Source: Clostridia bacterium (GTDB lineage Bacteria > Bacillota > Clostridia > Saccharofermentanales > UBA5734). Taken from it: 64,000 bases of DNA. The notes beneath the pieces are model-generated. The model was not told the origin of the DNA and searched no databases. It saw only the letters and a program-made list of their open reading frames with translations. The translations under genes were made by a program, and so were the position numbers. Where the stretch lies: positions 949,223-1,013,222 of the forward strand of contig JAXGXR010000002.1 of NCBI GenBank assembly GCA_040772725.1. The letters run 5' to 3'. Positions 5,183 through 26,234 of the stretch are shown here, piece by piece; the first letter of the stretch is position 1; each line of letters starts with the position of its first letter.

Positions 5183-5827
5183 TTAACGGTTCAGGGCCTT
5201 CCTCACGGTCGCGTCAAGGACCGGGTCCACTTCGATCTGGAGTGTTCGCTTGCCTTTCAGGTCTTTCCGGCGGTCAAGCGAATCTGCCGCTTCGACGATC
5301 CATTTGATGGCCAGTTCGGCTTTAATGTGCCGGGTGTCGATGACCAGGTCAAAGTAGGCCGCGTCGTCCGCCTTGACATTGTAGTAGGTCTGGAGGAAGC
5401 TGCCGCGGATGCGGTCATTCTGATCGACGACCCTTTCGGCATCCTTGCGCTCCTGCAGTTCGAGCGTCATCATGGTGCTGATGATCCGATGCTCGCGGGG
5501 TGCCTTGATCAGGACATTCAGGACATTGTCGTAATCCTGGAGCACCATGTAGCCGCCGCGTCCGCGGATCACGACATTGTCCTGCCTGGCAAACGCTTCG
5601 AGGGTCTTGTCCAGCATCCGGACACTATTGACCTTGTCCGAGTCCAGCCGGTCCCAGATGGAGTGGTCCGCGTCATAGAATTTGCCGAAAGTGACCATGC
5701 CGTATTGTGAAAGGATCGATTCGATCATCGTTTTATCCACAAACGAATAGCCTTTGGCGTTCGCGACCTCTTGGCTGATCAAATCGCCAAGGCTGCCGTA
5801 ATCACGGGAAATGGTGATGATTGCCAT
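5183..5827 (-). CDS. cytidylate kinase-like family protein (AAA/NMP-kinase fold)
   Basis: 214 aa. N-terminal MAIITISRDYGSLG P-loop-like start resembles the cytidylate-kinase-like family common in Clostridia. It is the last gene of the minus-strand GRE1 gene string. Confidence 0.55.
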   Translation of the reverse strand: MAIITISRDYGSLGDLISQEVANAKGYSFVDKTMIESILSQYGMVTFGKFYDADHSIWDRLDSDKVNSVRMLDKTLEAFARQDNVVIRGRGGYMVLQDYDNVLNVLIKAPREHRIISTMMTLELQERKDAERVVDQNDRIRGSFLQTYYNVKADDAAYFDLVIDTRHIKAELAIKWIVEAADSLDRRKDLKGKRTLQIEVDPVLDATVRKALNR

Positions 5828-5889
5828 TGTTTTCTCCTTTCAGCCCTCAGAAGGGACAATAGGGGGCATGAACCAGGCCTGACGGCCAG

Positions 5890-6702
5890 TCATTTGCTGT
5901 TCACGTAATCGACCATCGCCTTTTCCATGACCTCGAAAGGCGCGTCGACACCCGTGTACAATTCAAATTGGCCGCAGGCCTGGTAGAGCAGCATCTTGTA
6001 CCCCTCGATCGCGGTGCAGCCGGCTGCGCGGGCCTCTTTGACGAAGGTTGTCTCGATCGGGATGAACACAGCGTCAAGCACAATGGACCCGGGGCGGAAG
6101 CGATCCCGGGTCAGGATCGTTTCGGTGGTCTTGAAACCGACTGACGTGCAATTGATGAGAATGTCATATTCCGTGCGGCTGTCCAGTAGTTCCGGCTTGC
6201 CGGCGAAAGTGACGCCAAACTGGTCAGCGACACGCTGCCCTTCGTCTTCGAAGATATTGTAGATGGAGATGTCGGTGGTGTATTTTTTCAGTCCCCAGGT
6301 GACCGCTTTGCCGGCTCCGCCAGCGCCGATGATGGCGACTTTTTTGCCCTTCAGGTCGGTGATGCGCGCCAACGCGCGGATCGCGCCCATGTAATCCGTG
6401 TTGTAACCGGTCAGCACACCCTGGTCATTGACCACGGTGTTCACCGCGCCGATCTCGCGGGCCGAGTCATCCAGACGATCGAGATACTGGATGACATCAA
6501 CCTTGAACGGCATGGTCACGCCCATCCCGCGAAACCCGAGGTTGCGGACAGACGCGACAGCCTGCTGCAGGTCGTCCGGCTCGAAAGACACATAGACATA
6601 CTTCAGTCCCAGATGACTGAACGCCGCGTTGTGCATGACGACGCCCATGCCACCGATTGATCCGGCAATCGAGCAGCAGACGACAGGATAACTTTTGGCC
6701 AT
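5890..6702 (-). CDS. shikimate/quinate dehydrogenase family oxidoreductase
   Basis: 270 aa. AroE-like motifs GMGVTMPFK, GAVNTVV and YNTDYMG, plus Rossmann motif IGAGGAGKA. GGGAGG RBS. Confidence 0.75.
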   Translation of the reverse strand: MAKSYPVVCCSIAGSIGGMGVVMHNAAFSHLGLKYVYVSFEPDDLQQAVASVRNLGFRGMGVTMPFKVDVIQYLDRLDDSAREIGAVNTVVNDQGVLTGYNTDYMGAIRALARITDLKGKKVAIIGAGGAGKAVTWGLKKYTTDISIYNIFEDEGQRVADQFGVTFAGKPELLDSRTEYDILINCTSVGFKTTETILTRDRFRPGSIVLDAVFIPIETTFVKEARAAGCTAIEGYKMLLYQACGQFELYTGVDAPFEVMEKAMVDYVNSK

Positions 6703-6728
6703 GGTGAAAACCTCCCTGATTTTCGATT

Positions 6729-7706
6729 TCAGATGTCGCAGGAACAGTTGTCGAACAAGAGCTGCTCCGCGCCGATGATGCCGAAATCGCTTCCGAGCTC
6801 GGCGTACTTGAAATAGACCGGCATGTCTTTCTGTGACTGGTTGAAACGGTCGAAATGATGACGCACTTTGTCGAACAGGAAATCGCCCATCCGGGAAAGT
6901 CCGCCGCCGAAAACGTACAGGTTGATGTTGAACGCCTGATACAGGTTGAATGTCCAGACGCCGAGGTAATAGGCCATTTGATCGACAGCCCGGTTCGCGA
7001 GTCTGTCTCCGGCTTTCGCGGCGTCTTCCAGGATCCTGCCATCGATTGCTTCCGGGTCGCCGCCGGCCATTTCAAGCATGGTGCTCGTTTCTCCCTGCTC
7101 CAGCCAGGCTCGTATGTGGCGGACGATCATCGAACCGGACGAGTAGGACATGAAGCAACCCTGATTGCCACAGCCGCACATCAGACCGGCATCCGGCGTG
7201 ATCAGCATGTGTCCGGTTTCACCGGAAGCGCCATAACTGCCGCGGAAGAGGTTATTGTTGATGATGATCCCGTTGGCGATACCGGTGCTGACGGCACAAT
7301 AGAGCATATGCTTCGCGCCCCGCCCCGCCCCGAACCGATGCTCCGCGATCGCGGCCACGTTGCAGTCGTTGTCCAGCAGGACACGGACACCGAGTTTTTG
7401 TTCAAAGAAAACCTTCGCGTCGCAATTCTGCAGCGTGCAGATGTTGGACGTGCAGAGAATGCGGCCTTTTTCGAAATCAATGTAAGAAGGGAACGCCAGG
7501 CCTACGCCGTCGATATCGGCCATGTCCAGCCCATTGCTTTCCACCAGACTGAAAATGCCGTCCACGATCGACTGGAGAATGTCCTCGCTGGTCCCATCCT
7601 GCCGGGTCGCATGCTTCGAGCGGGCGACAATCGTGTGGTCTTCATCGAACAGACCGTAGGCGACTTTTGTGCCGCCCACATCGACGCCGACGCAATATTT
7701 GCCCAT
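6729..7706 (-). CDS. ROK-family sugar kinase
   Basis: GVDVGGTKVAYG phosphate-1 motif and ROK Cys motif CGCGNQGCFM. Start placed at ATG 7706 (MGKYCVG). An alternative ATG at 7760 forms an ATGA overlap with the Dabb stop codon. Confidence 0.8.
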   Translation of the reverse strand: MGKYCVGVDVGGTKVAYGLFDEDHTIVARSKHATRQDGTSEDILQSIVDGIFSLVESNGLDMADIDGVGLAFPSYIDFEKGRILCTSNICTLQNCDAKVFFEQKLGVRVLLDNDCNVAAIAEHRFGAGRGAKHMLYCAVSTGIANGIIINNNLFRGSYGASGETGHMLITPDAGLMCGCGNQGCFMSYSSGSMIVRHIRAWLEQGETSTMLEMAGGDPEAIDGRILEDAAKAGDRLANRAVDQMAYYLGVWTFNLYQAFNINLYVFGGGLSRMGDFLFDKVRHHFDRFNQSQKDMPVYFKYAELGSDFGIIGAEQLLFDNCSCDI

Positions 7707-7756
7707 AGAATCATCCTTTCGCGTGTGCCCGGCCATTGGACCGGCTGGTTCGAGGG

Positions 7757-8038
7757 TCATTCCAGATAGTCAACGCTGTACGACGCGGCCCGGATCCTCC
7801 GGACTTCCTCCCGGATCAGCTGATGATAGTCACTGGTGTCATAGCGTTTCAGCCCGTCCATGTCCTTGAAATCAAGAATGAAGCAAAAATCACAGGAACT
7901 GTTCAGGTGAGAGATGTCCTCGCCAGCAGAGACGGCAAGAACGTCGGGGATGTGACGGGCGCAGTCCATCACCAGCGCTTGGCAGCGGGTGGCGTCATAG
8001 CCGTTCTTGAGCCGGATCATGACAACGTGCTTCAACAT
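7757..8038 (-). CDS. Dabb (stress-responsive alpha/beta-barrel) domain protein
   Basis: 93 aa. MLKHVVMIRLK ... HIPDV ... FKDMDGLKRYDTSDYHQ pattern is typical of Dabb family proteins. Confidence 0.7.
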   Translation of the reverse strand: MLKHVVMIRLKNGYDATRCQALVMDCARHIPDVLAVSAGEDISHLNSSCDFCFILDFKDMDGLKRYDTSDYHQLIREEVRRIRAASYSVDYLE

Positions 8039-8060
8039 GTCCTGTCCTTCGTGATTCAGG

Positions 8061-8084
8061 CGTCCGGCCAGGCCCGGCCGGACG
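8061..8084 (-). other. GC-rich intercistronic stem-loop between GRE1 and the Dabb gene
   Basis: CGTCCGGCC / GGCCGGACG 9-bp perfect stem with a 6-nt loop and no U-tract. Likely an mRNA processing or stability element rather than a terminator. Confidence 0.4.
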
Positions 8085-8092: not shown

Positions 8093-10504
8093 TCAGATCG
8101 AGTGTTCCGTACGTTCGATGATGTCATCCTGGGTTTCGGGCGACAGGACGTTGAAGAAAGCGCTGTAGCCGGCGACCCGAACGATCAGGTTGCGGTATTT
8201 CTGCGGTTCCTTCTTGGCGGCCACGAGGGTGTCGCGCGACACGATGTTGTACTGGACATGGTATCCATGCAGGTCATTGAAGAAAGTCCGGATCATGGCC
8301 ATCAATTTGCCGATGCCGGGTTCATTGGACAGGCTTGTGGGGCTGATCTTCTGATTCAGAAGGACACCGCCCGTGATCCGCCCGGTCGGCAGTTTCGCGA
8401 CGGATTTGTAGACCGCGGTCGGACCGTTGACGTCCGTGCCGTGTGACGGGGAGCACCCTTCCGCCAGCGGCTCTCGGGCTTTGCGACCGTCGGGCATCGC
8501 ACCGACTGTGCTGCCCTGCGGCACGTTGGCCGAGATGGACGACGTGCCGGCGTAGTAGCCGCCGCCGATCGGGCCGCGGCCAAATCGAGTGTTCTTGTAC
8601 GACGCGTAGGTGTCGATGAACTCGTTGTAGGCATCAGCCAGCAGATTGTCGACATAATCGATGTCATTGCCGTACTTGGGAGCCCGGTTGATGAGGGTCT
8701 GGCGGATGCGTTCACCCTCCGGACCTTCGAAGTTGCTCATGATGGCGTCCCACACCTGCTGGCGGGTCAGGACCTTGTCCTCGTAAACCAGTTTCTTGAT
8801 CGCGGCGAGCGAGTTGCCGAGATTGGCAATGCCGACCTGAAGTCCGCTGATGAAGTCATAGACCGCGCCGCCTTCCTTGATTGTCAGCCCGCGCTCGATG
8901 CAGTCGTCAGTCAGGGCAGAACACAGGACGTCCGGCACTTCCTTCTCCAACGCGTAGTCGGCAACCGTGTCCATGATGACTGCCTGGCGGGCAAAATACT
9001 TGACGGTCCTGGACCAGGCATCGAAGACTTCGTCAAAGGTTTCCATCTCGACAAAGTGCTTGCCAACGCCAGGATGGATGCGTTTGCCCGATAGCGGCTC
9101 AATGCCGCTGTTCAGCGAGGACATCAGCACCTTGCCGAAATTCAGGAAGCTCATGCCGGTGCAGCGATAGCCCCATTTGCCGGGAACGGCTGTTTCAACA
9201 CAACCGATGGCGCTGTAATTGTAGGCATCCTCCTTCCGGACCCCGAGCTTCATGAAAGAGGGGATGATGATCTCGTCATTGTTGTAGGCCGGCATGCCGA
9301 AGCCGAGCTTCACCACTTCGATCGTCGCCCGTAAGAATGCGTCGGGTGTGCCCTTGTGATAACGGACGGTCAGGTTCGGCTGCGTGAACCGGATCCGGCC
9401 GACACTCTTGAGCACCAGGATGCTCAAAGGATTGGACGCGTCCCGGCCGTCCGGGGTCTGACCGCCGATGGTCACATTCTGGTAAAGCGGTCCGCCGGCT
9501 GAAAAGCGGGTGTGGGCATAACTGCGGATCTTGTTGATCGTATAGGCTTTGATCCAGAGATATTCCAGAAGTTCGGTCGCCTCTTCTTCCGTGATGCGGC
9601 CGGCGGCAATATCCTTTTCATAATAAGGGTACAGATACTGGTCAAGGCGTCCGAAGGAGGTCGAGTGTCCGTTGGACTCGATCTGCAGGATCAGCTGGAT
9701 GAACCAGGTGCTCTGGACCGCCTCATAGAAGTTGGCCGCGGGATTTTCCGGGACTCGGCGGCAGTTGTAGGCGATACGTGACAATTCCTTCTTGCGGTTT
9801 TCGTCAGGTTCTGTTTCCGACATGGAATCGGCCAGGTCGGCGAACCGGTGGGCGAACGCGATGACCGCGTCGCACATGATCAGCACCGATTGGAGAAAGA
9901 ACTGCTTCTTGAAGTCGTCGAACTGGGCGATGTCAAGGCGGGCCAGACGCTCCTCGGCTTGCTTTCTGACACCGGCGATGCCCTCGCGGAGCACTTTGCC
10001 GAAATCGACGGCGATATGCCCGTCACCGGAGGTGATGTTCCCTTCGGCCTTGATCATGCCGATATCATACAAGAACCGGCCTTCGGGCGTCATGGTCGAA
10101 AGCGCCTTGTCCTTCAGGGTCTTGCCCTTCCACCAGTCACAGATTTCGAGCAGCTCGGGTTTCTTGTCCTCGTCGATATAGAACCGGTCACCCGGCCGTT
10201 TGTCGAATTCGTCGATTTCGTTGACAATCCAGTCGACCGCGTACTCCGGGAAAATCGGGGCCGCCCGGTGGTTGGACGCCTGGTTTCCGACGATCAGTTC
10301 AGACGGGTCGATGAAGATCGGCATTTGCTCAAGGATGGCTTTCATGGCGAGTGCGCGCTTGATGACGACCTGTTTGTCCTCGTTCTGCTTGTAAACTTCA
10401 GTAATGATCCGGGCCCGATCGATGCAGACTGTAGACTTCGTGTCCAGGACCCGATTGCGCATGTCCTGGACTTGTGCGCTTGACTGGCCAAAAAAATCAG
10501 ACAT
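8093..10504 (-). CDS. glycyl radical enzyme, PFL2/glycerol-dehydratase family (GRE1, substrate unknown)
   Basis: 803 aa. C-terminal glycyl motif RVAGYSAFF, Cys loop AIGCVETAVPGK, and SGDGH and ESNGHS motifs resembling B12-independent diol dehydratases. AAGGAGG RBS. No adjacent activase. Confidence 0.9.
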   Translation of the reverse strand: MSDFFGQSSAQVQDMRNRVLDTKSTVCIDRARIITEVYKQNEDKQVVIKRALAMKAILEQMPIFIDPSELIVGNQASNHRAAPIFPEYAVDWIVNEIDEFDKRPGDRFYIDEDKKPELLEICDWWKGKTLKDKALSTMTPEGRFLYDIGMIKAEGNITSGDGHIAVDFGKVLREGIAGVRKQAEERLARLDIAQFDDFKKQFFLQSVLIMCDAVIAFAHRFADLADSMSETEPDENRKKELSRIAYNCRRVPENPAANFYEAVQSTWFIQLILQIESNGHSTSFGRLDQYLYPYYEKDIAAGRITEEEATELLEYLWIKAYTINKIRSYAHTRFSAGGPLYQNVTIGGQTPDGRDASNPLSILVLKSVGRIRFTQPNLTVRYHKGTPDAFLRATIEVVKLGFGMPAYNNDEIIIPSFMKLGVRKEDAYNYSAIGCVETAVPGKWGYRCTGMSFLNFGKVLMSSLNSGIEPLSGKRIHPGVGKHFVEMETFDEVFDAWSRTVKYFARQAVIMDTVADYALEKEVPDVLCSALTDDCIERGLTIKEGGAVYDFISGLQVGIANLGNSLAAIKKLVYEDKVLTRQQVWDAIMSNFEGPEGERIRQTLINRAPKYGNDIDYVDNLLADAYNEFIDTYASYKNTRFGRGPIGGGYYAGTSSISANVPQGSTVGAMPDGRKAREPLAEGCSPSHGTDVNGPTAVYKSVAKLPTGRITGGVLLNQKISPTSLSNEPGIGKLMAMIRTFFNDLHGYHVQYNIVSRDTLVAAKKEPQKYRNLIVRVAGYSAFFNVLSPETQDDIIERTEHSI

Positions 10505-10583: not shown

Positions 10584-10612
10584 ATCATATTTTATGAGGC
10601 AGGTTTCGTCAA
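10584..10612 (-). promoter_or_regulatory. putative sigma-70-type promoter for the GRE1 operon
   Basis: On the minus strand: TTGACG, 17 nt spacer, TATGAT. Located in an AT-rich divergent intergenic region about 80 nt upstream of the GRE1 ATG. Confidence 0.4.
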
Positions 10613-10811
10613 GTCTGAATTTTCGAATGAAAGCAAAACGAATGATAAATGAAATATCCTTAAAACCATCTGTTTTTCGACTTATTGAACTAAATATCTT
10701 AATCAGCCGCGTTATTGATCCTTGATGAAGGCATAATGTACAAAATTAAAAGCGCATAATTGTTCAAATAATCTTATTTTGTTTTTTGATCGTCAATCTA
10801 AAGATTTTCTA

Positions 10812-10838
10812 TTGAAAGCCAACATACTTTCGTATAAT
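10812..10838 (+). promoter_or_regulatory. putative promoter for the sugar ABC operon
   Basis: TTGAAA ... TATAAT, but the spacer is only 15 nt. About 100 nt upstream of the SBP start. Confidence 0.3.
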
Positions 10839-10942
10839 ATGCAAATTGTAACAACCGATACGATTCTGAAAGGGGCGAGGAAACAACCGTTTCGACAACT
10901 TCATTTCTGAACTCGACTACAATGCGAAAGAAAAAGGAGAAA

Positions 10943-11941
10943 ATGAACATGAATCTGAAAAAAGTCATCACACTCCTGTTGGCCTTGGCCATGATCATCA
11001 GCCTCGCGGCCTGTGGTTCGACCGCGACCACCACCGCAGCGACCACCGCCGCGACCACTGGCGGCACCACGGCAGCCGGCCTGGTGAAGGCCGCCTTCAT
11101 CGTCGCCGACATGGCGAACGAGTCCCAGGCTTTCTCTTCCAGAGAATTCCAGAAATATGGTGCGGAATACGGCTTCGATGTCACGATCCTTGACGCCAAG
11201 GCTGACACGCAGACCGAGTCCAAACTGGTCACCAACTGCATCGCGCAGGGAATGAAGGTCATCTGGCTCAACCCGAATGACATCAAGGCCATCGTCCCCA
11301 GCCTGATGGAGGCAAAGAAAGCCGGCATCACCATCGGCATGTTCTCATCCGACCTCGGCACTGCCGATCAGCAGTACCGCGACTTCTTCTGCGGGGTCAA
11401 TGACCTGCAGGCCGGCGAAGCGGCTGCCAAAGCCTTCATGGACAAGTTCCCGAACGGCGCCAACATCGTCGAAATCGGCGGCCAGTCCGGCCATGATGCG
11501 CAGATCAAGCGCCATGACGGCTTCAACAAGGTCATCGCCAACACCAACATCAAGGTCATCGACTACCAGGCCCCGACTGCCTGGTCGACCGAGCAGGCCC
11601 AGAAGATAGCCGAAGACATGATCGTCCGCCACGGTGACAAGATCGAAGGCATCTTCTGCCACTGGGACAACGGCGCCACCGGCATCATCCAGGCCCTGAA
11701 GACCGCCAACAAGAGCGGTGTCTTCCTGGTCGGCGTTGATGGCAACAAGGCCGGGTTCGCCCAGGTCAAGGAGGGCACCCAGTCCGTAACCATCTCCCAG
11801 AACTTCACCAACATGACCAAGAAGTCGCTCGAACTGGCCAGGGACAAAATCGCCGGCAAGACAGTCGAGCAGATCAACTTCATCCCGCTCGATGTCATTT
11901 CCCAGGCCAACATCAGCCAGTTCCCGACACCGGAGTGGTGA
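10943..11941 (+). CDS. sugar ABC transporter substrate-binding lipoprotein (ribose/PBP1 type)
   Basis: Signal peptide plus lipobox (IISLAAC), followed by a Thr/Ala-rich linker and a periplasmic-binding-protein type I fold pattern. AAGGAG RBS before ATG 10943. Confidence 0.85.
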   Translation: MNMNLKKVITLLLALAMIISLAACGSTATTTAATTAATTGGTTAAGLVKAAFIVADMANESQAFSSREFQKYGAEYGFDVTILDAKADTQTESKLVTNCIAQGMKVIWLNPNDIKAIVPSLMEAKKAGITIGMFSSDLGTADQQYRDFFCGVNDLQAGEAAAKAFMDKFPNGANIVEIGGQSGHDAQIKRHDGFNKVIANTNIKVIDYQAPTAWSTEQAQKIAEDMIVRHGDKIEGIFCHWDNGATGIIQALKTANKSGVFLVGVDGNKAGFAQVKEGTQSVTISQNFTNMTKKSLELARDKIAGKTVEQINFIPLDVISQANISQFPTPEW

Positions 11942-12042: not shown

Positions 12043-13563
12043 ATGGCAAACGCAGCATCAGAGTATATCCTTTCGGTCAAGGATGTCAGCAAGACGTTCC
12101 CTGGCGTCAAAGCCCTTGACCAAGTGACGTTTTCCGTCAGGCGAGGAACGGTCCACGGCCTTGTCGGTGAAAACGGCGCAGGCAAATCGACCCTGATGAA
12201 GATCCTGTCAGGCGTCTATGTGAAAGATACAGGCACCGTCATTTTCGACAATGAGGAAGTGGTCAGCACCACACCGATCAAATCCATGCACAGCGGCCTC
12301 AGCATCATTTATCAGGAACTCAACCTGGTCAACACCCTGAGCGTCGGAGAAAACATCTTCCTTGGCCGTTTTGGCGAAATGAAAGGCATGAGCGGCATCC
12401 ACGCGAAAGCGAAGGAACTGCTGGACAGCATCGGCTGCCGTTTTGACTCGCACACCATGGTCGACGACCTGAGCGTGTCTGAAAAGCAGATGGTGGAAAT
12501 CGCCAAGGCCCTTTCTTACAAGTCGAAGCTGATCATCATGGACGAGCCCAGCTCGAGCCTGACAGCTGACGAAATGAAGGAACTCTACAAGATCATCCAT
12601 CAACTGAAGGACCAGGGCATTTCGATCATATTCATCAGCCACAAGCTGGATGAGATCTTCGAGCTTTGTGACGTGGTGACCATCCTGCGCGACGGTCGCG
12701 TCATCGACACCAAGCCAGCCGTGGACCTGACCCGCCAGGAGATGATCGCCAAGATGGTGGGCCGTACAATCGAGAACGAATATCCCGAAAGACCCTGCTG
12801 TATCGGCGAGGTGCTTCTGGAAGTCAAGGATATCAACACCCGAAAGCTCAAGAATGTTTCCTTCAATGTCCGGAAGGGAGAGATCCTCGGCCTGGTTGGC
12901 CTGGTCGGTGCGGGCCGCACGGAGATTGTCAGGGCCCTGTTTGGCGCGGACAAGGCGCATGGCCACGAGGTCCTGGTGGATGGCGTACCGGTTCGGATCA
13001 AAAAGCCGAGCCAGGCGATCAAGGCCGGGTTCGGTTTTGTCCCTGAGGATCGGAAACAGCAAGGGCTGGTCCTGCCGTTTTCTGTCGAATCGAACATCGC
13101 CATGGCCAGCCTGGACAAGATCACAGTCCGTGGGATCCTGCGCAAGTCCATCGAGAAACAGATCGCCGAAAAGCATGTCAAGTCCCTGGGCGTGAAAACC
13201 CCGTCCATCAAGACCAAGGTTGTCAGCCTGTCGGGCGGCAACCAGCAGAAATGCATCATTGGCCGCTGGCTGGAGATCGAACCGAAAATCTTCATCATGG
13301 ACGAGCCAACCCGCGGTATCGATGTCGGCGCCAAATACGAAATCTATGTCCTGATGAAAGAGATTGCCGAACGCGGTGGCGCTGTCATCCTGATTTCGTC
13401 CGAGCTCCCCGAGGTTCTCAACATGAGCAACCGGGTCCTGACCATCTTTGAAGGCAGGATCACTGGTGAATTCGATCCCCAGGCATTCACGCCCGACCAG
13501 ATCATGGCGAGCGCGCTCGGGATGGGCAGTATGGAGGTGGCGCAGCATGCAGGTCAACACTGA
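12043..13563 (+). CDS. sugar ABC transporter ATP-binding protein (duplicated NBD, RbsA/MglA type)
   Basis: 506 aa. Walker A GENGAGKST, signature LSVSEKQ, and a second NBD with GLVGAGRTE and LSGGNQQK. Confidence 0.9.
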   Translation: MANAASEYILSVKDVSKTFPGVKALDQVTFSVRRGTVHGLVGENGAGKSTLMKILSGVYVKDTGTVIFDNEEVVSTTPIKSMHSGLSIIYQELNLVNTLSVGENIFLGRFGEMKGMSGIHAKAKELLDSIGCRFDSHTMVDDLSVSEKQMVEIAKALSYKSKLIIMDEPSSSLTADEMKELYKIIHQLKDQGISIIFISHKLDEIFELCDVVTILRDGRVIDTKPAVDLTRQEMIAKMVGRTIENEYPERPCCIGEVLLEVKDINTRKLKNVSFNVRKGEILGLVGLVGAGRTEIVRALFGADKAHGHEVLVDGVPVRIKKPSQAIKAGFGFVPEDRKQQGLVLPFSVESNIAMASLDKITVRGILRKSIEKQIAEKHVKSLGVKTPSIKTKVVSLSGGNQQKCIIGRWLEIEPKIFIMDEPTRGIDVGAKYEIYVLMKEIAERGGAVILISSELPEVLNMSNRVLTIFEGRITGEFDPQAFTPDQIMASALGMGSMEVAQHAGQH

Positions 13564-14542: not shown

Positions 14543-14548
14543 GAGGGG

Positions 14549-18522: not shown

Positions 18523-20916
18523 ATGAAGTCACCTGTCCATTTGAATGATCAGCAAATCGCCAGACTCAACCAGACGCCGCAGACATTGCGGATTGAAACA
18601 TTAAAGCAGAAAATGCTCGATGAGCCACGCTACATGTCGATTGAACAGGCCAGAATCATCACTGCGGTGTATCAGGCCAATCCGGACAAGCCGGTCATCC
18701 TGAAACGCGCGCTTTCTCTTCGGGCTTCGCTCGAGCAGCTTGAGATCGCGATTGAGCCTGAAGAACTGATCGTTGGCAACCGGACACGTGGCGTCCGCGG
18801 CGGTGTCGTGTTCCCGGAGTCGGGCGCTTCCTGGATCGACCGGGAAATCGAAACGTTGCCGACCCGGCCCCAGGACCGGTTCAATGTCCGGCCGGAGGAT
18901 GTGGTCGAGTTCCGTGAAAAGATTTATCCGTACTGGAAAGGCCATTCGCTCGAGGACCGGATTGTCGAGGCGGGTGGGGAAGAGATCAATGCGATCGCCA
19001 AGGTCGTCAAGATCAACCAGAAGGACCACGCGCAGGGTCATATCTGTCCGGATACCGAACTCTGGCTGGAAAAGGGACCGGCCGGCTTGCGCAAACAGGC
19101 TGAAGACCTGATTCAGACCAGTTCGGGCGAGGCGCATGACTTTTACGCCAGTGTCATCGAGGTCCTGACCGGCGCGAGCCGATTCATGGAACGTTACGCT
19201 GAACTGGCGACCGGGATGGCGTCCGATGAAATAAACGCCCCAAACCGGGAAAACCTGCTTGAGGTGGCCAGAATCTGTCATAAATTGGCTTCTGCGCCAC
19301 CGGAGACCTTCCATGAAGCGGTCCAGTCGATGTGGTTCCTGTATGTCATCCTGCACATGGAATCCAATGCCTCGTCATTTTCACCCGGTCGGGCGGACCA
19401 GTACCTTTACCCGTATTATGCGGCGGATCGTGCGTCCGGTCGTCTGGATGACACTCGCGCCCTGGAGATCATCGAGTCCCTCTGGCTGAAATTCAACCAG
19501 ATCGTCTATCTGCGCAATGCGCATAGTGCCAAATACTTCGCTGGTTTCCCCATCGGATTCAACCTGGCGGTCGGCGGACAGCTGGCAGATGGCAACGATG
19601 CGACCAATGAGCTGTCCTACCTGTTCCTGACGGCCCAGGAGCACATCGGTCTGCCACAGCCAAACCTGTCGGCCAGGCTTTACAAGAATTCACCCGAAGC
19701 CTTTGTCCGCCAGTGTGTCCGAGTCGTTGCCAAGGGCAGCGGCATGCCGCAATTCTTCAATGATGAAGCGGTCATACCTGCTCTGATCAATCAGGGGATC
19801 GAGGAGCCGGACGCCAGGGATTATGCCATTGTCGGCTGTGTGGAGTTGACAACCCATGGCAACAACCTCGGCTGGAGCGATGCTGCGATGTTCAACATGC
19901 TCAAGGCTCTGGAACTGACGCTCAACAATGGTGTCTGCCTGGTCAGCGGCGAACGGATCGGACTGCCCCTGGGCGATCTGACCACTTACGCATCCTATGA
20001 AGAGCTGGAAAACGCTTTCCAGAAACAGGTCGACCATTTCATCGACCGGATGGTGAAAAGCTGTGAAGTGGTGGAACGGATGCATCAGGAAGTCCTGCCT
20101 TCACCCTTCTTGTCAACCGTCATTGACGACTGCATGGTGGCCGCGAAGGACGTGACCGCCGGTGGCGCCCAGTACAACCTGTCGGGCATCCAGATCATCC
20201 AGGGTGCCAACATCGCGGACAGTCTGGCAGCTTTGAAAAAACTGGTGTTTGATGAAAACCGCTTTTCGAAAGAGCAGGTGCTGAATGCCCTGCGTGAAAA
20301 CTTTGCCCATGACGAGCCGCTTCGCCTGACCCTGCTCAATCACGCGCCCAAATACGGCAATGACATCGCCTGGGTCGATGATATCGCCAATCACTGGATC
20401 CGCCACTTCAACACCTACCTGAGCCAATATACGAACTACCGTGGCGGTCGCTACCATACGGGTCTCTACACCGTGTCAGCCCATGTCCCGATGGGCCAGA
20501 ACGTCGGCGCCAGCCCGGATGGGCGATTCTCGCGCGAACCGCTGGCCGATGGCGGCATGTCGCCGGTCTATGGTCGTGACATCAAGGGGCCGACCGCCGT
20601 CCTGAAGTCTGTCTCCAAGATCAGCTCCATGTATGGCAGCAATGGGACGTTGCTGAACATGAAGTTCCTGCCGGAATTCTTCACGGAAAGCGGGGTCGAG
20701 AAATTCGCCCTGATGCTGCGGACCTTTGTCGATCTCAAGATCCCGCACATCCAGTTCAATGTCCTGCGTCAGGAGGATCTCCGTGCCGCGCAGAAGGAGC
20801 CGGAGAAATACAGGAACCTCACCGTCCGGGTCGCGGGCTACACCGCCTACTTCACGGAGCTGGCCGGCGATCTTCAGAATGAGATCATCGCCCGCACCAG
20901 CTACGGTGATATCTGA
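18523..20916 (+). CDS. glycyl radical enzyme, PflD/YbiW-like (GRE2)
   Basis: 797 aa. RVAGYTAYF glycyl motif, Cys loop IVGCVELTTHG (Cys codon 19837-19839), and motifs NQKDHAQGH, ESNASSFSPGR, LPQPNL and YTVSAHVPMG. Start at ATG 18523 behind GGAGGG. Confidence 0.9.
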   Translation: MKSPVHLNDQQIARLNQTPQTLRIETLKQKMLDEPRYMSIEQARIITAVYQANPDKPVILKRALSLRASLEQLEIAIEPEELIVGNRTRGVRGGVVFPESGASWIDREIETLPTRPQDRFNVRPEDVVEFREKIYPYWKGHSLEDRIVEAGGEEINAIAKVVKINQKDHAQGHICPDTELWLEKGPAGLRKQAEDLIQTSSGEAHDFYASVIEVLTGASRFMERYAELATGMASDEINAPNRENLLEVARICHKLASAPPETFHEAVQSMWFLYVILHMESNASSFSPGRADQYLYPYYAADRASGRLDDTRALEIIESLWLKFNQIVYLRNAHSAKYFAGFPIGFNLAVGGQLADGNDATNELSYLFLTAQEHIGLPQPNLSARLYKNSPEAFVRQCVRVVAKGSGMPQFFNDEAVIPALINQGIEEPDARDYAIVGCVELTTHGNNLGWSDAAMFNMLKALELTLNNGVCLVSGERIGLPLGDLTTYASYEELENAFQKQVDHFIDRMVKSCEVVERMHQEVLPSPFLSTVIDDCMVAAKDVTAGGAQYNLSGIQIIQGANIADSLAALKKLVFDENRFSKEQVLNALRENFAHDEPLRLTLLNHAPKYGNDIAWVDDIANHWIRHFNTYLSQYTNYRGGRYHTGLYTVSAHVPMGQNVGASPDGRFSREPLADGGMSPVYGRDIKGPTAVLKSVSKISSMYGSNGTLLNMKFLPEFFTESGVEKFALMLRTFVDLKIPHIQFNVLRQEDLRAAQKEPEKYRNLTVRVAGYTAYFTELAGDLQNEIIARTSYGDI

Positions 20917-21944
20917 TGGCAGCCGACCAGGCGGCCAAACCCGTGCAGGAGGCCGGACGGTCCCGGTCGGACATCGACTGGGACCGCCGAGGTCTGGTTT
21001 TTGATATCCGTCGGTTTTCCACGCATGACGGACCCGGCATCCGGACATCGGTTTTCACCAAGGGCTGTCCGCTTCGGTGCCTCTGGTGCCAGAACCCGGA
21101 AGGGATCGAACTGAAGCGCAATTTGTTCTATTTCCGTGAAAAGTGTATCGGCTGCGGGACCTGTGTCGCCCATTGCCCGCAAAAGGCGATCCGGAAAGTG
21201 GACGACAAGATCGCCATCGACCGATCGCTGTGCGATCTGTGCGGCATCTGTGTCGATGTCTGCCCGCCCCAGGCCCTGAGCTTTGATTCGCGGGAGATGA
21301 CGGTACGCGAGGTCGTGAACGAGGTGCTGCTCGACCGGCCGTTCTATCGCGATAACGGTGGATTGACGATCACGGGCGGGGATCCGGTGGTCCAGCATGC
21401 GTTCAATGTCCAGGTCCTCAAGGCGTGCCGGTCTTACGGCATCCACACGGCGATCGAAACGAGCCTTTTTGCGGACCGGAACGTGCTCGAGTCACTTCTG
21501 CCGCACATCAACCTGCTGATCGCGGATTTCAAGGTGTTTGACGAACAGGACCATCTGGCCTGGACCGGCGTGTCCAATGACCGGATCAAGCGCAACTTCG
21601 AATGGATCATTTTGCGTATGAGACAGATGCGGGAGCAGAAAGGACAGCGTGCCGGCCATCAGACACCCGATCCGGAACTGCTGGTCCGGATTCCCATGAT
21701 CCCCGGCCACAACACCACTTTGGAAAACCTTCGTCAGACCGGCGCCTATTTTTACCGGCTTGACCCGACAACCCGGATCGAATTGCTGAATTACAATCCT
21801 CTGGCCATGAACAAATATGTCCTTCTGGAACAGCCCTACCTGTTTGACCAGAATCCCAGAATGTTCACGCAGGAAGAAATGGCTGATTTTGTCCTGGCCT
21901 TGCGGGAAACGGGTGTGGTGGCGTTCGCCGAACCATCCCGTTGA
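20916..21944 (+). CDS. glycyl-radical enzyme activating protein (radical SAM)
   Basis: CPLRCLWC (CX3CX2C) plus two ferredoxin motifs, CIGCGTCVAHCP and CDLCGICVDVCP. ATGA overlap with the GRE2 stop. Confidence 0.9.
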   Translation: MAADQAAKPVQEAGRSRSDIDWDRRGLVFDIRRFSTHDGPGIRTSVFTKGCPLRCLWCQNPEGIELKRNLFYFREKCIGCGTCVAHCPQKAIRKVDDKIAIDRSLCDLCGICVDVCPPQALSFDSREMTVREVVNEVLLDRPFYRDNGGLTITGGDPVVQHAFNVQVLKACRSYGIHTAIETSLFADRNVLESLLPHINLLIADFKVFDEQDHLAWTGVSNDRIKRNFEWIILRMRQMREQKGQRAGHQTPDPELLVRIPMIPGHNTTLENLRQTGAYFYRLDPTTRIELLNYNPLAMNKYVLLEQPYLFDQNPRMFTQEEMADFVLALRETGVVAFAEPSR

Positions 21945-21974: not shown

Positions 21975-22712
21975 TCAGCAGGGAACGGTGATCAACTCGA
22001 TTCCATATCCGCTGATGACTTTGCGTGCGCTTTCCGGGATGCATTCGTCGGTGATGATGACGCTGACCTCGGAGAGAGACAGTTGCTTGGCAACACCCCG
22101 CATGCTGAACTTGCCGGAATCCGTGAGGATGATCGCCTTGTTCGCCCGCTGGGCCATCGCATAGGCGACCTCGGCGCGCTGGAGGTTGATGCAGGTGAAT
22201 CCATCCTCGGAAAAACCATCCGAACCGATGAACACCTTGTCGACAAAAAAGGACTGCAGGGACTGTCGTGTGAGTGGGCCGACGCAAACCTCGGACTCCG
22301 GCTGAAAATCGCCGCCGAGCAGGATGACTTTTGCCCGGGGGTGTTCACGGATGAAACTGGCAATGAAACAGGAGTTGGTGACGATCGTGACATCCTTGCT
22401 CTCGGCGAGTGCCTTGGCAAGCAACGCATTGGTCGAGCCGGACTCGATCAGGATCGTTTCACCCGATTCCACCATCTGGGCTGCCCGTTCCGCGATCCGC
22501 TGCTTGATTTCAAAATTGGAGTGCAATCGATTGGCGACACGTTCAGCCGAGGCGCCACCATGGACTCGCCGGATCAGACCATGCTGCTGCAATGCTTTGA
22601 GGTCACTACGGATCGTCACCTGGGAGACATTGTACTTCAAGGCCAGCTCTGATACAGTTAATTTGTCATTTTCTGACAGGTCCTTGAGGATTTGCATGCG
22701 TCGCTCATTCAT
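21975..22712 (-). CDS. DeoR-family transcriptional regulator
   Basis: 245 aa. N-terminal HTH (LTVSELALKYNVSQVTIRSDLKAL) and a C-terminal DeoR sugar-phosphate-sensor domain. Divergent from GRE3. Confidence 0.9.
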   Translation of the reverse strand: MNERRMQILKDLSENDKLTVSELALKYNVSQVTIRSDLKALQQHGLIRRVHGGASAERVANRLHSNFEIKQRIAERAAQMVESGETILIESGSTNALLAKALAESKDVTIVTNSCFIASFIREHPRAKVILLGGDFQPESEVCVGPLTRQSLQSFFVDKVFIGSDGFSEDGFTCINLQRAEVAYAMAQRANKAIILTDSGKFSMRGVAKQLSLSEVSVIITDECIPESARKVISGYGIELITVPC

Positions 22713-22791
22713 TTGATGTCACACTCCTGTTGATTAACGGATTGAAGACACCCCGTTATGGTTCTTTTGTTTAAAATTATAACTGTTTTTA

Positions 22792-22820
22792 TTGAAAGTG
22801 TATAGCATTTCGATTAAAAT
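22792..22820 (+). promoter_or_regulatory. putative promoter for the GRE3 operon
   Basis: TTGAAA, 17 nt spacer, TAAAAT in an AT-rich divergent region. An AAAATG-N9-CATTTT inverted repeat follows immediately downstream and may be an operator. Confidence 0.45.
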
Positions 22821-22945: not shown

Positions 22946-25297
22946 ATGCTGGAAAGAATCGAAAGTCTCAGAAAATTTGTCATGGAAAGCCCGCGCCAGG
23001 TGTCTCTGGAGCGCGCACTGATCCACAAGGAATCCATGGAGGCCTCCGCCGGTCTGCCGGAGATCATCCGGCGCGCCATGTCATTTGGCCACATGGTGTC
23101 AAAATTCGAGATCGCGATCCATCCCGGTGAACTGATTGTCGGCGGGAGAACGGCCAATCCAAGGGCCGGAGTCGTGTCGGCCGGCCTGGGGGCCGACTGG
23201 CTGATGGAAGAACTGGACACGATCGCGACACGTGCGGTCGATCCGTTCCAGATCAGCCCGGCACAAAAACAGCTTTTCCGTGATGTGCTTTATCCGTATC
23301 ACAAAGGTCATGACATGCGGTCACGGATCGAGGCGGATCTGTCCGATGAGCAGAAAGCGGCCCGGGATGCCGGGATTTTTCGCCTCAACCAGACTGACAA
23401 GGGGCAGGGGCACATCCTGCCCGATTATTCGATTCTCCTGAAGCAGGGGATCGGACAGATGATCGAGGCCATGTCGGCCCTCCTGGGAGACCATCCGGAC
23501 AACACATTCTACAAGGCGACCCTGATCTGCTATCGAGGATTCCAGCACCTGATCGACCGATATGCCCGGCTGGCAGCCGATCAGGCTGATCATGAACCGG
23601 ATCCGGCGCGAAAGGCAGAGCTGAGGACCATCGCCGTCAACCTGAAATCCATCCGGGAAGCGCCGCCGGCAGATTTTCATCAGGCCTTGCAGCTTTTCTG
23701 GCTGACTTGTGTCGCGCTTCAACTCGAGTCCAATGCCAGTTCAATCTCGATCGGCCGTTTTGACCAGTTCATGCTACCCTATTTCCAGAAGGATATCGAA
23801 GAGGACCGGCTGAGTTTCGAACAGGCGCATCTGCTGCTGTCCTGCCTCTGGATCAAGATGAACGAGGTCATCATGATCCGCAGTGAGGACAGCGCCCGCT
23901 ATTTCGGCGGCTTTCCGACCGGATACAACATGGTTCTGGGCGGGATCACCAGCGACGGGTGGGACGGGACCAACGCGCTCAGCTATCTTTGCCTGGAGAT
24001 CACGAATGATCTTCGCCTGCCTCAGCCAAACCTGTCGGTCCGGGTCCACGCGAGCACCCCGACTTCGTTCTTGAAAAAGTCGTCCGAACTGGTGGCACAG
24101 GGATTTGGCATGCCCCAGATTTTCAACGATGATACGATCATCGAGACGCTGGTCAAGGAAGGAGTCAATCGGGAGGACGCCAAAGATTACGCGATTGTCG
24201 GCTGTGTCCAGCTGTCCATACCCGGCAAGATGTATGGCATGCCCGATGTCGCCCTTTTCAACCTGTTGAAATGCCTGGAGCTGGTGATTCACAGGGGGCT
24301 GGATCCGATCACCGGATCCACGATGCCGGTCGAGCTGGTGGATGGCCATGAGAGTCGATTTGAAAACTTCGAACAATCCGTGATGGAAACGGTGCGGCAC
24401 TATGTCCGTCAGGCCTGCCTCGGTGCGAATGTCGTTGACCGGGCACACCAGGACCTGGCCCAGGTGCCGCTGTTGTCGACCCTGATGACGGGATGCGCTG
24501 AAAGCGGCCGGGACATGACAGCAGGCGGGACCCGCTACAACTTCACCGGCCTTCAGCAGACCGGCATCGCCAATCTGGCCGATGCCATGCTCGTGATCCG
24601 CTCCGTGGTGTTTGAACAGCGGCGGATGACACTCGCTCAGTTGAGCCGTATCCTGCTGGACAACTACGCCGGGCATGAATCGATCCGACAGTCATTTATC
24701 GAAGACTACCCCAAGTACGGCAACAACATTGATGCGGTCGACACATTGGCGAACCGTTATCTGAAAAAATTCTGCGAGTTTGTATCGGCCAACACCAATC
24801 CGAGGGGTGGTCGGTTCTCGCCCGGCAGCTACACGGTGTCGGCCCACATCCCGATGGGGAAGAAGGTGGGGGCGACCCCGGATGGCCGCATGACCGGCAC
24901 AAAACTGGCGGATGGGGGACTGGCGCCCAGTGCCGGCCGGGATCTGCTGGGTCCGGTTTCGCTACTCAAGACGGTCAGTCGTCTGGACAGCGAGCTCTTG
25001 TCAAACGGCAGTCTGCTCAACATGCGGTTCAGCCGCGCCTCGTTTGTCGAGGCGGACAGTTTCGACCGATTCTTCCGGCTGATCAAGCTGTTCATCAAAC
25101 TCAAGCTCCTGCATATCCAGTTCAGTGTGGTGGATGAATCGTACCTGCGGGACGCCCAGACGCATCCAGAAAAGTATCCTGAACTCATGGTCAGGGTCGC
25201 CGGGTACACGGCCTATTTCAAGGACCTGGGCCGGGAGGTCCAGGATGACATCATCGACCGTTGCGCGAACAATATGGAGTTGAATGCGGATGAGTGA
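22946..25297 (+). CDS. glycyl radical enzyme, PflD/YbiW-like with a variant Cys loop (GRE3)
   Basis: 783 aa. RVAGYTAYF (Gly codon 25202-25204), and motifs LNQTDKGQGH, LESNASSISIGRFDQ, ARYFGGFPTGY and YTVSAHIPMG. The Cys loop reads IVGCVQLSIPGK, with Gln where the family normally has Glu. Confidence 0.9.
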   Translation: MLERIESLRKFVMESPRQVSLERALIHKESMEASAGLPEIIRRAMSFGHMVSKFEIAIHPGELIVGGRTANPRAGVVSAGLGADWLMEELDTIATRAVDPFQISPAQKQLFRDVLYPYHKGHDMRSRIEADLSDEQKAARDAGIFRLNQTDKGQGHILPDYSILLKQGIGQMIEAMSALLGDHPDNTFYKATLICYRGFQHLIDRYARLAADQADHEPDPARKAELRTIAVNLKSIREAPPADFHQALQLFWLTCVALQLESNASSISIGRFDQFMLPYFQKDIEEDRLSFEQAHLLLSCLWIKMNEVIMIRSEDSARYFGGFPTGYNMVLGGITSDGWDGTNALSYLCLEITNDLRLPQPNLSVRVHASTPTSFLKKSSELVAQGFGMPQIFNDDTIIETLVKEGVNREDAKDYAIVGCVQLSIPGKMYGMPDVALFNLLKCLELVIHRGLDPITGSTMPVELVDGHESRFENFEQSVMETVRHYVRQACLGANVVDRAHQDLAQVPLLSTLMTGCAESGRDMTAGGTRYNFTGLQQTGIANLADAMLVIRSVVFEQRRMTLAQLSRILLDNYAGHESIRQSFIEDYPKYGNNIDAVDTLANRYLKKFCEFVSANTNPRGGRFSPGSYTVSAHIPMGKKVGATPDGRMTGTKLADGGLAPSAGRDLLGPVSLLKTVSRLDSELLSNGSLLNMRFSRASFVEADSFDRFFRLIKLFIKLKLLHIQFSVVDESYLRDAQTHPEKYPELMVRVAGYTAYFKDLGREVQDDIIDRCANNMELNADE

Positions 25298-26234
25298 GTT
25301 GACGCCCGAACAAAGGAACACCTATCTGGCGACACGAGGCATCGTGTTCAATATCCAGCGCTTCAGCATTCACGATGGCCCGGGCATCCGGACAATCGTG
25401 TTCATCAAGGGTTGCCCCCTGCGCTGCCAGTGGTGTTCCAACCCCGAATCACAGGATCCGAAGCCTGTCCTCATGTTCTCACAGAAAAAATGCATCAGCT
25501 GTGGCCTGTGTGAAAAAGCCTGCCCGCTGGACGCGATCTCTTTTGTCGACAGTCCTTATCCGAAAATTGATCGCAGCATTTGCGACAACTGCGGCAAATG
25601 CGCCGAAGTCTGCTGCACGGAAGCGCTCTATATGGAAGGCAAAAGCATGTCGGTCGAGGAGGCCATGACAGAGGTCATGAAGGACAAACCCTTCTATGAC
25701 AATTCGGGCGGCGGACTGACCCTTTCCGGTGGCGAAACCCTTGCCCAGCCAAATTTCGCTCACGCGCTCCTGGCGATCGCCAAAGACCGGGGCCTTCATA
25801 CGGCTGCGGAAACGACCGGCTTTGCCCAGCCGGAGGTCCTGAAAAAAATCGTATCCAAATTGGACTTGGTCCTTTATGACTTCAAGCATGTCGATCCGGT
25901 CCGACACCTCGAAAAGACCGGGGTCGACAATACACAGATTCTTGAAAACCTGAAAATGCTGTGCGAGATGAAAGTCCCTCTGGTCGTGCGCATTCCGATC
26001 ATCCCGGGATTCAATGACGCGCTTTCAGATGCCGCTGAATTCGGTCGCCTGCTCAGTGAACTGAAAGTTGAAGAAGTCAATCTGCTTCCGTTCCACCAGA
26101 TGGGAGAGCACAAATACGAACTGCTTGGCAAACCCTATGCTTACAAGGGTGTCAAGAGCCTGCGCGAAGAGAGCCTTGTCGAGTACCGCCAGATCATGGC
26201 CGATTTTGATCTCGACGTCAAAATTGGTGGCTGA
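25284..26234 (+). CDS. glycyl-radical enzyme activating protein (radical SAM)
   Basis: 316 aa. CPLRCQWC plus CISCGLCEKACP and CDNCGKCAEVC motifs. Overlaps the GRE3 end. Confidence 0.9.
   Translation: MRMSELTPEQRNTYLATRGIVFNIQRFSIHDGPGIRTIVFIKGCPLRCQWCSNPESQDPKPVLMFSQKKCISCGLCEKACPLDAISFVDSPYPKIDRSICDNCGKCAEVCCTEALYMEGKSMSVEEAMTEVMKDKPFYDNSGGGLTLSGGETLAQPNFAHALLAIAKDRGLHTAAETTGFAQPEVLKKIVSKLDLVLYDFKHVDPVRHLEKTGVDNTQILENLKMLCEMKVPLVVRIPIIPGFNDALSDAAEFGRLLSELKVEEVNLLPFHQMGEHKYELLGKPYAYKGVKSLREESLVEYRQIMADFDLDVKIGG

Follow-up and report, generated by a model that had tools for sequence, protein, structure and literature searches.

A cluster of three glycyl radical enzyme genes in a Clostridia bacterium suggests a PTS-independent, kinase-dependent variant of anhydroglycolysis

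What could three glycyl radical enzymes (GREs) be doing next to a sugar importer and two kinase-like proteins? The question is raised by a 64-kb stretch of DNA from a Clostridia bacterium (GCA_040772725.1, contig JAXGXR010000002.1, positions 949,223 to 1,013,222), referred to here as the window, in which the genes concerned occupy a cluster region at 3.9–26.2 kb. An initial annotation had listed three PFL2-type GREs, two activases, a ribose-type ATP-binding cassette (ABC) importer, two ROK/ASKHA kinase-like proteins and AraC and DeoR regulators, and had reported that the window has no phosphotransferase system (PTS), no microcompartment shell genes and no aldehyde dehydrogenase. We found this inventory to be correct. 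All three GREs contain PFL-like and Gly_radical domains and have the C-terminal and Cys-loop motifs described for them, and both activases match TIGR02494. One kinase-like protein matches the ROK model PF00480, the other, named U610 here, was recognised by the fold of its AlphaFold model, and both regulators were found with Pfam. Searching the window by tblastn with E. coli PtsA and FrwBCD gave no match, and Pfam scans of the open reading frames (ORFs) of at least 150 aa, with small ORFs outside the cluster left unscanned, revealed no shell protein and no aldehyde dehydrogenase. We consider it reasonably probable that the cluster encodes a PTS-independent, kinase-dependent variant of GRE “anhydroglycolysis” in which one branch is orthologous and two are new. 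The comparisons described below also support the earlier suggestion that radical chemistry may take place here on imported, kinase-phosphorylated sugars or sugar alcohols, for which 1,5-anhydroglucitol and 1,5-anhydromannitol had been put forward among the candidates.

The cluster region is organised in four transcription units, for which start codons were revised from ribosome-binding sites and homologue lengths. The first, on the minus strand, contains the genes of GRE1, a Dabb protein, the ROK kinase, a shikimate-dehydrogenase-like (SDH-like) protein, a cytidylate-kinase-like protein and perhaps an MFS transporter; the Dabb, SDH-like and cytidylate-kinase-like genes had not been named before. 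The importer genes form the second unit, which is divergent from the first on the plus strand. In the third, U610 and the AraC gene (minus) are divergent from GRE2 and its activase AE2 (plus), and in the fourth the DeoR gene (minus) is divergent from GRE3 and its activase AE3 (plus).

The reference system for our comparison is found in E. coli. According to the passages on these enzymes in PMC13450708 and PMC12441222, YbiW and PflD act as GRE “isomerases”: by ring opening of 1,5-anhydroglucitol-6-phosphate and 1,5-anhydromannitol-6-phosphate, respectively, they produce 1-deoxyfructose-6-phosphate, which an aldolase then splits into glyceraldehyde-3-phosphate and hydroxyacetone. The same passages state that E. 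coli makes the anhydrohexitol phosphates by means of a PTS, and trace the chemistry to Ma et al., JACS 2024. A C-x-E motif is kept in all characterised C–O eliminases and in the three isomerases; its Glu is hydrogen-bonded to a substrate hydroxyl and is the general base in GRE 1,2-eliminases and isomerases (PMC13450708, a review of 2026).

All three GREs of the window pass the TIGR01774 model (PFL2/glycerol-dehydratase-like) with 799–972 bits against a cutoff of 678, and all have RVAGY and a GC[VI] Cys loop. Besides the three enzymes of the window and the E. coli enzymes YbiW and PflD, the 100 GREs that we aligned were homologues retrieved in two database searches and GREs of related loci. They fell into four groups, inside each of which the pocket-region segments are near-invariant. 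The YbiW type, to which GRE1 belongs, is marked by GN.TSGD.H, IESNGHS and GC[IV]E.AVPGKWGYRCTG, and PflD proper by NQTDKGQGHII and GCVELSIPGKTYGLHD. The signature of the GRE2 clade is NQ.DH[AS]QGHICP, ESNASSFSPGR and GCVELTT[HQ]GN.LGWSD, and that of the GRE3 clade is GCVQLSIPGKMYGMPD. GRE2 and GRE3 are 39.8% identical to each other and score 775 and 858 bits with the NCBIfam PflD equivalog NF007437, which has a cutoff of 1109 bits. As both stay below this cutoff and have signatures of their own, neither is filed as PflD. The C-x-E motif is present in GRE1 and GRE2 (GCVE) and is replaced by C-x-Q in GRE3 (GCVQ). GRE1 is alone among the three in lying inside a characterised clade, and the canonical neighbourhood of that clade differs from the one seen here.

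GRE1 (8093–10504, minus strand; 803 aa; motif RVAGYSAFF) is the orthologous branch. Its best matches in a phmmer search of the PDB are the YbiW structures with 940–949 bits, followed by glycerol dehydratase as the next family with 647. It is closest to YbiW over its full length, with 53.7% identity, and keeps every signature segment of the YbiW clade, including the Cys loop GC[IV]ETAV.GKWGYRCTG. We predict, with good support from this relationship, that GRE1 is a 1,5-anhydroglucitol-6-phosphate ring-opening C–O lyase, which like YbiW would depend on an activase. The surroundings of the two enzymes differ. In E. coli, ybiW-ybiY lies beside fsaA and ybiV, whereas GRE1 has no adjacent activase, fsaA or ybiV and no PTS; the ABC importer and the ROK kinase presumably supply its substrate. 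Furthermore, the Dabb, SDH-like and cytidylate-kinase-like genes that are co-transcribed with GRE1 are without a counterpart in the E. coli locus. One related locus (L040) has a fructose-6-phosphate aldolase (FSA) gene close to its YbiW-type GRE. Upstream of GRE1, a promoter-like site (TTGACG-17-TATGAT) was seen as a consensus match at 10584–10612 on the minus strand.

The ROK kinase encoded two genes downstream of GRE1 (6729–7760, minus strand; PF00480, 198 bits) is a regular member of its family. It has the zinc motif CGCGNQGC, in agreement with the family pattern CxCGxxGC, and no DNA-binding domain, and its best solved relatives are the glucokinases 3vgk and 2qm1. We propose that it acts as a 1,5-anhydroglucitol 6-kinase.

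The SDH-like protein of the same unit (5890–6702, minus strand; Pfam Shikimate_dh_N and SDH_C) represents one of two types seen in related loci. The window's protein is of type A and is 61–66% identical to the copies in L009 and L079 and 62% identical to the copy beside a ROK gene in L010 (tblastn); type A is syntenic with ROK in L003 and L010. Type B is ∼33% identical to type A and adjoins GRE2 or U610. In AroE, K65 and D102 form the catalytic dyad, S14, S16 and Y215 hold the shikimate carboxylate, and Asn, Thr and Gln bind hydroxyls. Like AroE and YdiB, the SDH-like proteins have the fold and domains of the family, and both types keep the residues aligned with K65/D102 and with N86/T61/Q244. 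The carboxylate binders of AroE are not kept: in place of S14/S16/Y215, the window's type A has G/G/F and type B has N/G/P. The genes also differ from aroE in lying in GRE/kinase operons and not in aro operons. With the carboxylate binders replaced, the SDH-like proteins are unlikely to act on shikimate or quinate, and an ordinary aroE is ruled out by these missing binders together with the synteny. We propose that a neutral polyol or ketone with a six-membered ring would suit these proteins well, and the conversion of 1,5-anhydrofructose to anhydroglucitol or anhydromannitol would be the obvious candidate reaction.

To place the remaining genes we carried out tblastn searches with the window proteins against the best 80 of at least 347 U610 loci in GTDB species representatives. 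The nearest related loci are from uncultured Oscillospiraceae. In L003, L004 and L005 all of GRE1, GRE2 and GRE3, both activases, U610, AraC, DeoR, the importer, ROK, Dabb and SDH-like genes are found together in shuffled order. The dominant arrangement is a smaller module of binding protein, ATPase, two permeases, a GRE2-type GRE (60–69% identity), AE2 and U610, frequently with an SDH-like gene after U610. This module was seen in Spirochaetes, Planctomycetota, Clostridia, Christensenellales and Propionivibrio. A GRE2/PflD-type GRE and an activase lie directly upstream of U610 in 39 of the 62 loci from GTDB species representatives that have enough upstream sequence. Where the sequence extends for at least 8 kb in both directions (43 loci), a GRE2/PflD-type GRE is present in 37, the importer (at least 60% identity) in 30, an SDH-like gene in 17 and a YbiW-type GRE in 14. 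In many loci the GRE2 and YbiW-type GREs have a single importer in common. Clustering of all ORFs in the 80 loci yielded no further frequent partner and no recurrent aldolase; HbpS-like, SDR, Zn-ADH, GMC, GFO and RmlD-like genes are occasional neighbours.

GRE2 (18523–20916, plus strand; 797 aa) is encoded in an ORF open from 18445, for which a GGAGGG ribosome-binding site and the lengths of homologues make 18523 the likely start. It has the motif RVAGYTAYF and is followed by AE2 (20916–21944, plus strand; TIGR02494, 279 bits), as in every locus compared. Its best PDB match is PflD with 661 bits and 44.0% identity. Among solved structures PflD is the nearest to both GRE2 and GRE3; the two have QGH, ESNASS, YF.GFP and YTVSAH in common with it, and an activase follows each of them. 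In E. coli, pflDC lies within frwCB-pflDC-frwD beside gldA-fsaB-ptsA. GRE2 and GRE3 differ from PflD in being only 44–45% identical to it, in the invariant NQxDHAQGHICP and GCVELTT[HQ]GNxLGWSD segments that are GRE2's own, and in having an ABC importer and the putative kinase U610 in place of the Frw PTS. Judged by its sequences, the GRE2 clade is a widespread, sharply conserved and uncharacterised sister clade of PflD.

Cultured Clostridium species give a hint as to its product. In C. beijerinckii (CP107022) and others, GREs with the GRE2 signature are encoded in compact GRE–activase–TAL_FSA operons (L088 10001–14191; L089 and L090 10001–14000) with no transporter or kinase nearby, so that GRE2-clade genes are linked to an FSA gene just as pflD is linked to fsaB. 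The aldolases of these operons carry the Schiff-base Lys85 and the FSA-type Tyr131, a residue that separates fructose-6-phosphate aldolases from transaldolases. This operonic linkage fits a 1-deoxy-ketose-6-phosphate as the GRE2 product. In addition, a Propionivibrio locus (L038) has the same module with a true PflD-type GRE, 68–69% identical to E. coli PflD. The most likely GRE2 substrate would be 1,5-anhydromannitol-6-phosphate or a close stereoisomer, converted to a product that FSA can cleave, and these gene associations argue moderately for it.

A different reading of the same module is that only GRE1 works on an anhydro-sugar, and that GRE2 (with U610 and the SDH-like protein) and GRE3 act on some other imported carbohydrate, for example cyclitols, deoxy-sugars or polyol phosphates. 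GRE2 and GRE3 would then be dehydratases or lyases with products other than 1-deoxyfructose-6-phosphate. We take this to be unlikely, although it deserves some weight: both enzymes score below the PflD cutoff and have other residues than PflD at conserved positions of the pocket region, carbocyclic polyols are the usual substrates of the SDH family, and accessory GMC, GFO/IDH/MocA, SDR and Zn-ADH oxidoreductases occur in some modules. It accounts less well for the Clostridium operons with FSA-type aldolases, for the true PflD-type GRE that replaces GRE2 in L038, and for the single importer common to GRE2 and YbiW-type GREs in many loci.

U610 (16403–18238, minus strand; 611 aa) is the second kinase-like protein of the cluster. 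It gave zero matches in Pfam and NCBIfam, PF00480 included, even at E = 10, and its more than 1,300 homologues, one of which (P0137) is from the cultured Vallitalea longa, are all labelled hypothetical. The family alignment has a mean column identity of 57% and invariant D-[VI]-G-G-T-D-I-K, N-D-G-P-M-A and G-T-E-L-G-T-G-W segments, which we take to be the phosphate-1, catalytic Asp and phosphate-2 motifs of ROK kinases. In the AlphaFold model (pLDDT 85.5, pTM 0.87), the C-terminal ∼430 residues match ROK glucokinases, GlcNAc/ManNAc kinases and hexokinases (Foldseek; E = 2e-11, target TM 0.70). Thus, U610 resembles ROK kinases in its superposition and in all three motifs, including the catalytic N-D-G, but differs from them in its roughly twofold length, an N-terminal domain of its own of ∼170 aa, insertions, the lack of the zinc motif and its invisibility to PF00480. 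We propose from this modelled fold and the linkage to GRE2 that U610 could be the kinase supplying GRE2; in the minimal modules it is the sole kinase candidate.

Two other roles were considered for U610. A DdrA/GdrA-like reactivase or chaperone of the GRE, suggested by a similar length and the ASKHA fold, was rejected, as the top 50 Foldseek matches are sugar kinases or ROK regulators, the catalytic motifs are invariant and U610 also occurs in loci with no GRE within 10 kb. A ROK-type repressor, suggested by Mlc as the second match, is less likely than a kinase given the invariant nucleotide-binding motifs, the presence of AraC and DeoR regulators in any case and the lack of another kinase candidate in the minimal modules. 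The U610-like protein of L003 is only 34% identical to that of the window and represents a divergent paralogue. In seven loci from metagenome-assembled genomes of Clostridia (L025, L041, L042, L051, L061, L062, L066), ROK and URO-D-like genes precede U610, which is mostly located at ∼10001, and ribosomal protein genes, rpoA and ECF-transporter genes are near.

GRE3 (22946–25297, plus strand; 783 aa; ORF from 22919), which is the database protein P0001, has the motif RVAGYTAYF and the Cys loop GCVQ. Its best PDB match is again PflD, with 742 bits and 45.3% identity. A search of 5.8 billion proteins gave only 14 clusters at least 60% identical to GRE3, the next relatives being PflD proper at 48%. 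All 14 clade members have Gln for the Cys-loop Glu and, in contrast to PflD, Pro for the His that comes after the loop, four residues before a conserved Asp. The Gln is residue 422 of P0001 (431 in the 792-aa ORF from 22919), and the corresponding PflD residue E421 is Glu433 in PDB numbering. In total, 25 positions are fixed both in PflD and in the GRE3 clade yet differ between them, among them D107Q, Y275F, E295L, E421Q, H432P, G524Q, Y597F and K682R, and on balance the GRE3 clade has fewer acidic and polar side chains. As GRE3 retains the Cys and the glycine motif and has an activase dedicated to it, it is very probably an active GRE with changed chemistry or a changed substrate. The activase, AE3 (25284–26234, plus strand; TIGR02494), is 42% identical to YbiY and 35% identical to PflC, and may serve both GRE3 and GRE1.

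The gene context of GRE3 varies. In the window and in L003–L005 it is together with all the other modules, in L091 it is back to back with a YbiW-type GRE and Dabb, and in L092 and L093 it stands by itself, accompanied by an ABC importer, AraC and DeoR regulators and a GFO/IDH/MocA oxidoreductase. We considered the L092 oxidoreductase as a homologue of anhydrofructose reductase, but a PDB search returned only uncharacterised family members and a dihydrodiol dehydrogenase, which lends this no support. These contexts bear on the possibility that the three GREs are largely redundant isozymes for anhydroglucitol-6-phosphate and anhydromannitol-6-phosphate, with GRE3 as a low-activity or non-catalytic paralogue, for instance a spare or regulatory one. 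The rarity of GRE3 would agree with this, as would its pocket regions, which otherwise resemble those of PflD more closely than the pocket regions of GRE1 or GRE2 do. However, the GRE3 genes of L092 and L093 have an importer, a DeoR and an AraC gene to themselves, and neither GRE1 nor GRE2 is in their vicinity. Moreover, the Cys, RVAGY and the dedicated activase are conserved, and the Gln and ∼24 further clade substitutions are fixed down to 60% identity, which indicates purifying selection for a distinct function. We therefore regard redundancy as improbable.

The importer that would feed these enzymes is of the CUT2 type. It consists of a sugar-binding lipoprotein (10922–11941; PF13407, Peripla_BP_4) whose nearest solved relatives are ribose-binding proteins, an ATPase with two nucleotide-binding domains (12043–13563; PF00005, ABC_tran, twice) and two permeases of PF02653 (BPD_transp_2; 13547–14542 and 14549–15520), all on the plus strand. 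The ORF of the first permease was listed from 13448, and its codon and ribosome-binding site make 13547 the likely start. The AraC-family regulator (15607–16419, minus strand; PF12833 and PF00165) overlaps the end of U610 by 17 nt and also comes after U610 in L003–L008. The DeoR-family regulator (21975–22712, minus strand; PF00455 and PF08220) is divergent from GRE3.

A promoter/operator element, TATTGAAAG-N9-TTTCG, is found on the plus strand upstream of the importer (10810–10840) and upstream of GRE3 (22790–22820), where it overlaps the promoter-like sequences TTGAAA-17-TAATAT and TTGAAA-17-TAAAAT, respectively. As the pattern was derived from these two copies, its significance within the window would be circular. 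In 1.4 Mb of related loci, however, six of the eight matches with at most one mismatch are located, in six loci, upstream of the importer or GRE3 in orthologous places. A DeoR-family gene adjoins five of these six sites; in L003 the DeoR gene lies ∼270 bp upstream of the site, and in L004 and L005 it is just downstream of the GRE3–activase pair. The occurrence of the element at orthologous sites supports co-regulation of the importer and GRE3 and, together with the conserved synteny, is indirect support for the cluster genes being co-regulated. We found no riboswitch or other Rfam family in the region, and terminator-like sites were not enriched over shuffles.

These observations also address the most trivial explanation, namely that the genes are neighbours by chance or through recent shuffling by mobile elements and do not form one system. 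An integrase, a transposase and a tRNA gene are indeed present at 50–54 kb of the window, and gene order varies between genomes. Against this, several genomes have the same ∼15 gene families side by side even though their order has been rearranged, the promoter element is common to two operons and conserved at orthologous sites, and base composition is even across the cluster region. As the same gene set recurs, rearranged, in L003–L005, and its GRE2–activase–U610 core in dozens of species, its co-location is not due to chance, and we consider this explanation, which the synteny contradicts, very improbable.

Taken together, the comparisons suggest the following pathway. The CUT2 importer would bring in neutral 1,5-anhydrohexitols, 1,5-anhydrofructose or both, and the SDH-like NAD(P) oxidoreductase would interconvert ring ketone and alcohol, for example by turning anhydrofructose into anhydroglucitol. 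In the cytoplasm, the ROK kinase and U610 would make the 6-phosphates that E. coli obtains from its PTS. The activated GREs would then abstract a hydrogen from C2 and break the C1–O5 bond, giving a 1-deoxy-ketohexose-6-phosphate. GRE1 would in all likelihood do so on 1,5-anhydroglucitol-6-phosphate and GRE2 probably on 1,5-anhydromannitol-6-phosphate or a near stereoisomer, with 1-deoxyfructose-6-phosphate as its putative product, and GRE3 might conceivably process a third sugar phosphate by a modified mechanism. An FSA-type aldolase encoded outside the window would complete the pathway by releasing glyceraldehyde-3-phosphate and hydroxyacetone. AraC and DeoR would control the modules, with the importer and GRE3 operons having a promoter element in common.

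Several observations weigh against this pathway. In E. coli the substrates are supplied by a PTS, and an FSA-type aldolase and GldA are linked to the GREs. In the 64-kb window none of this is seen: tblastn with FsaA/B, GldA and YbiV gave zero matches, as with the PTS proteins, so that with FSA, GldA and the sugar phosphatase absent from the window the lower pathway has to be assumed. In its pocket-region signatures GRE2 departs from PflD at numerous positions that do not vary within either clade, and both clades occur in Clostridia, which argues for a different substrate or binding mode over simple orthology. As GRE3 is without the Glu of the characterised eliminases and isomerases, its chemistry may not be ring opening. 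The SDH-like protein narrowly passes the NCBIfam cutoff for shikimate dehydrogenase (259 against 252). Seven loci have U610 next to ROK with no GRE within 10 kb, and U610 is therefore not strictly tied to GREs. Finally, the proposed pathway leaves the Dabb and cytidylate-kinase-like genes unexplained.

These two genes and the MFS gene complete the first transcription unit. Dabb (stress-responsive alpha/beta barrel; 7757–8038, minus strand; 93 aa; PF07876, E = 3e-13) is found beside a YbiW-type GRE in an equivalent position in L003 and L091. The cytidylate-kinase-like protein (5183–5827, minus strand; PF13189) has an N-terminal P-loop without the lysine, and its homologues (43–45% identity) adjoin DeoR and the importer in L006–L008. 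The MFS transporter (3876–5159, minus strand; PF07690) is at the end of the GRE1 gene string and may belong to the cluster; the L003 cluster also ends with an MFS gene.

Some genes recur in related loci. HbpS-like/GlcG-type genes (PF03928, ∼169 aa) were seen in nine GRE2/U610 loci (L015, L026, L030, L033, L038, L040, L046, L054, L076) and GMC oxidoreductases in seven; both are without a counterpart in the window. In the L003 cluster, the U610-like paralogue, a Cof-type HAD phosphatase (cf. E. coli ybiV beside ybiW) and a Lyx_isomer cupin are located at 13348–15222 and 19738–21256; homologues of the cupin (58–60% identity) come after U610 in L063, L073 and L076.

Outside the cluster, the window contains a third ROK-family protein (7–984) and an aldose 1-epimerase (60559–61479). 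Directly 3′ of AE3, at 26327–32170, there are genes for a Thr/Ala/Pro-rich lipoprotein, a DegT-type aminotransferase, a GT2 glycosyltransferase, an ATP-grasp L-amino-acid-ligase-like protein, an NMT1-like binding protein and a permease. These genes possibly form a small cluster of their own, unrelated to the GREs, for biosynthesis or the cell envelope. They are followed at 32174–35062 by overlapping ORFs of 962 aa (plus) and 879 aa (minus) with the highest GC content of the window (0.63); the plus-strand ORF, the one of the two that was scanned, has no Pfam match. A sulfur-related group at 34939–43822 encodes a double-rhodanese protein, a Pyr_redox_2–rhodanese fusion (CoA-disulfide-reductase-like) and a Sulf_transp membrane protein, and an NMT1/OpuAC-type ABC importer comes after it. 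The mobile genes mentioned above are tRNA-Ala(ggc) (50009–50084, minus strand), an rve-type integrase (50212–51489) and a DDE transposase (52780–54009), probably a mobile-element insertion beside the tRNA gene.

1,5-Anhydroglucitol occurs in the diet and is used as a clinical marker. To our knowledge, the only anaerobic route for 1,5-anhydrohexitols to have been characterised is the PTS/YbiW/PflD/FSA pathway of E. coli (2024). We found no ABC/kinase variant in a full-text search of the literature; the supplement of Ma et al., JACS 2024, may already mention kinase-type neighbourhoods. Should it describe kinase/ABC neighbourhoods, part of the novelty would fall. Even then, as far as PMC13450708 shows, no characterisation would exist of the GRE2 signature, of the U610 family or of the C-x-Q clade.

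The locus and its relatives suggest that GRE ring opening extends well beyond PTS-bearing gut bacteria by way of an ABC importer and kinases, with Spirochaetes, Planctomycetota, Christensenellales, Oscillospiraceae and Propionivibrio as suggested hosts. They also provide function predictions for the large “hypothetical protein” family U610 and for a large GRE clade present in Clostridium beijerinckii. Tentatively, and with a good deal of doubt about all three points being right at once, we suggest that GRE3 carries out radical chemistry without the Glu base on a probably more anionic sugar phosphate, that U610 represents a new and widespread class of GRE-feeding kinases, and that the GRE2 substrate is neither anhydroglucitol-6-phosphate nor anhydromannitol-6-phosphate. 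A natural GRE clade without the conserved catalytic Glu would be a ready-made test of the proposed deprotonation step in C–O cleavage by GREs.

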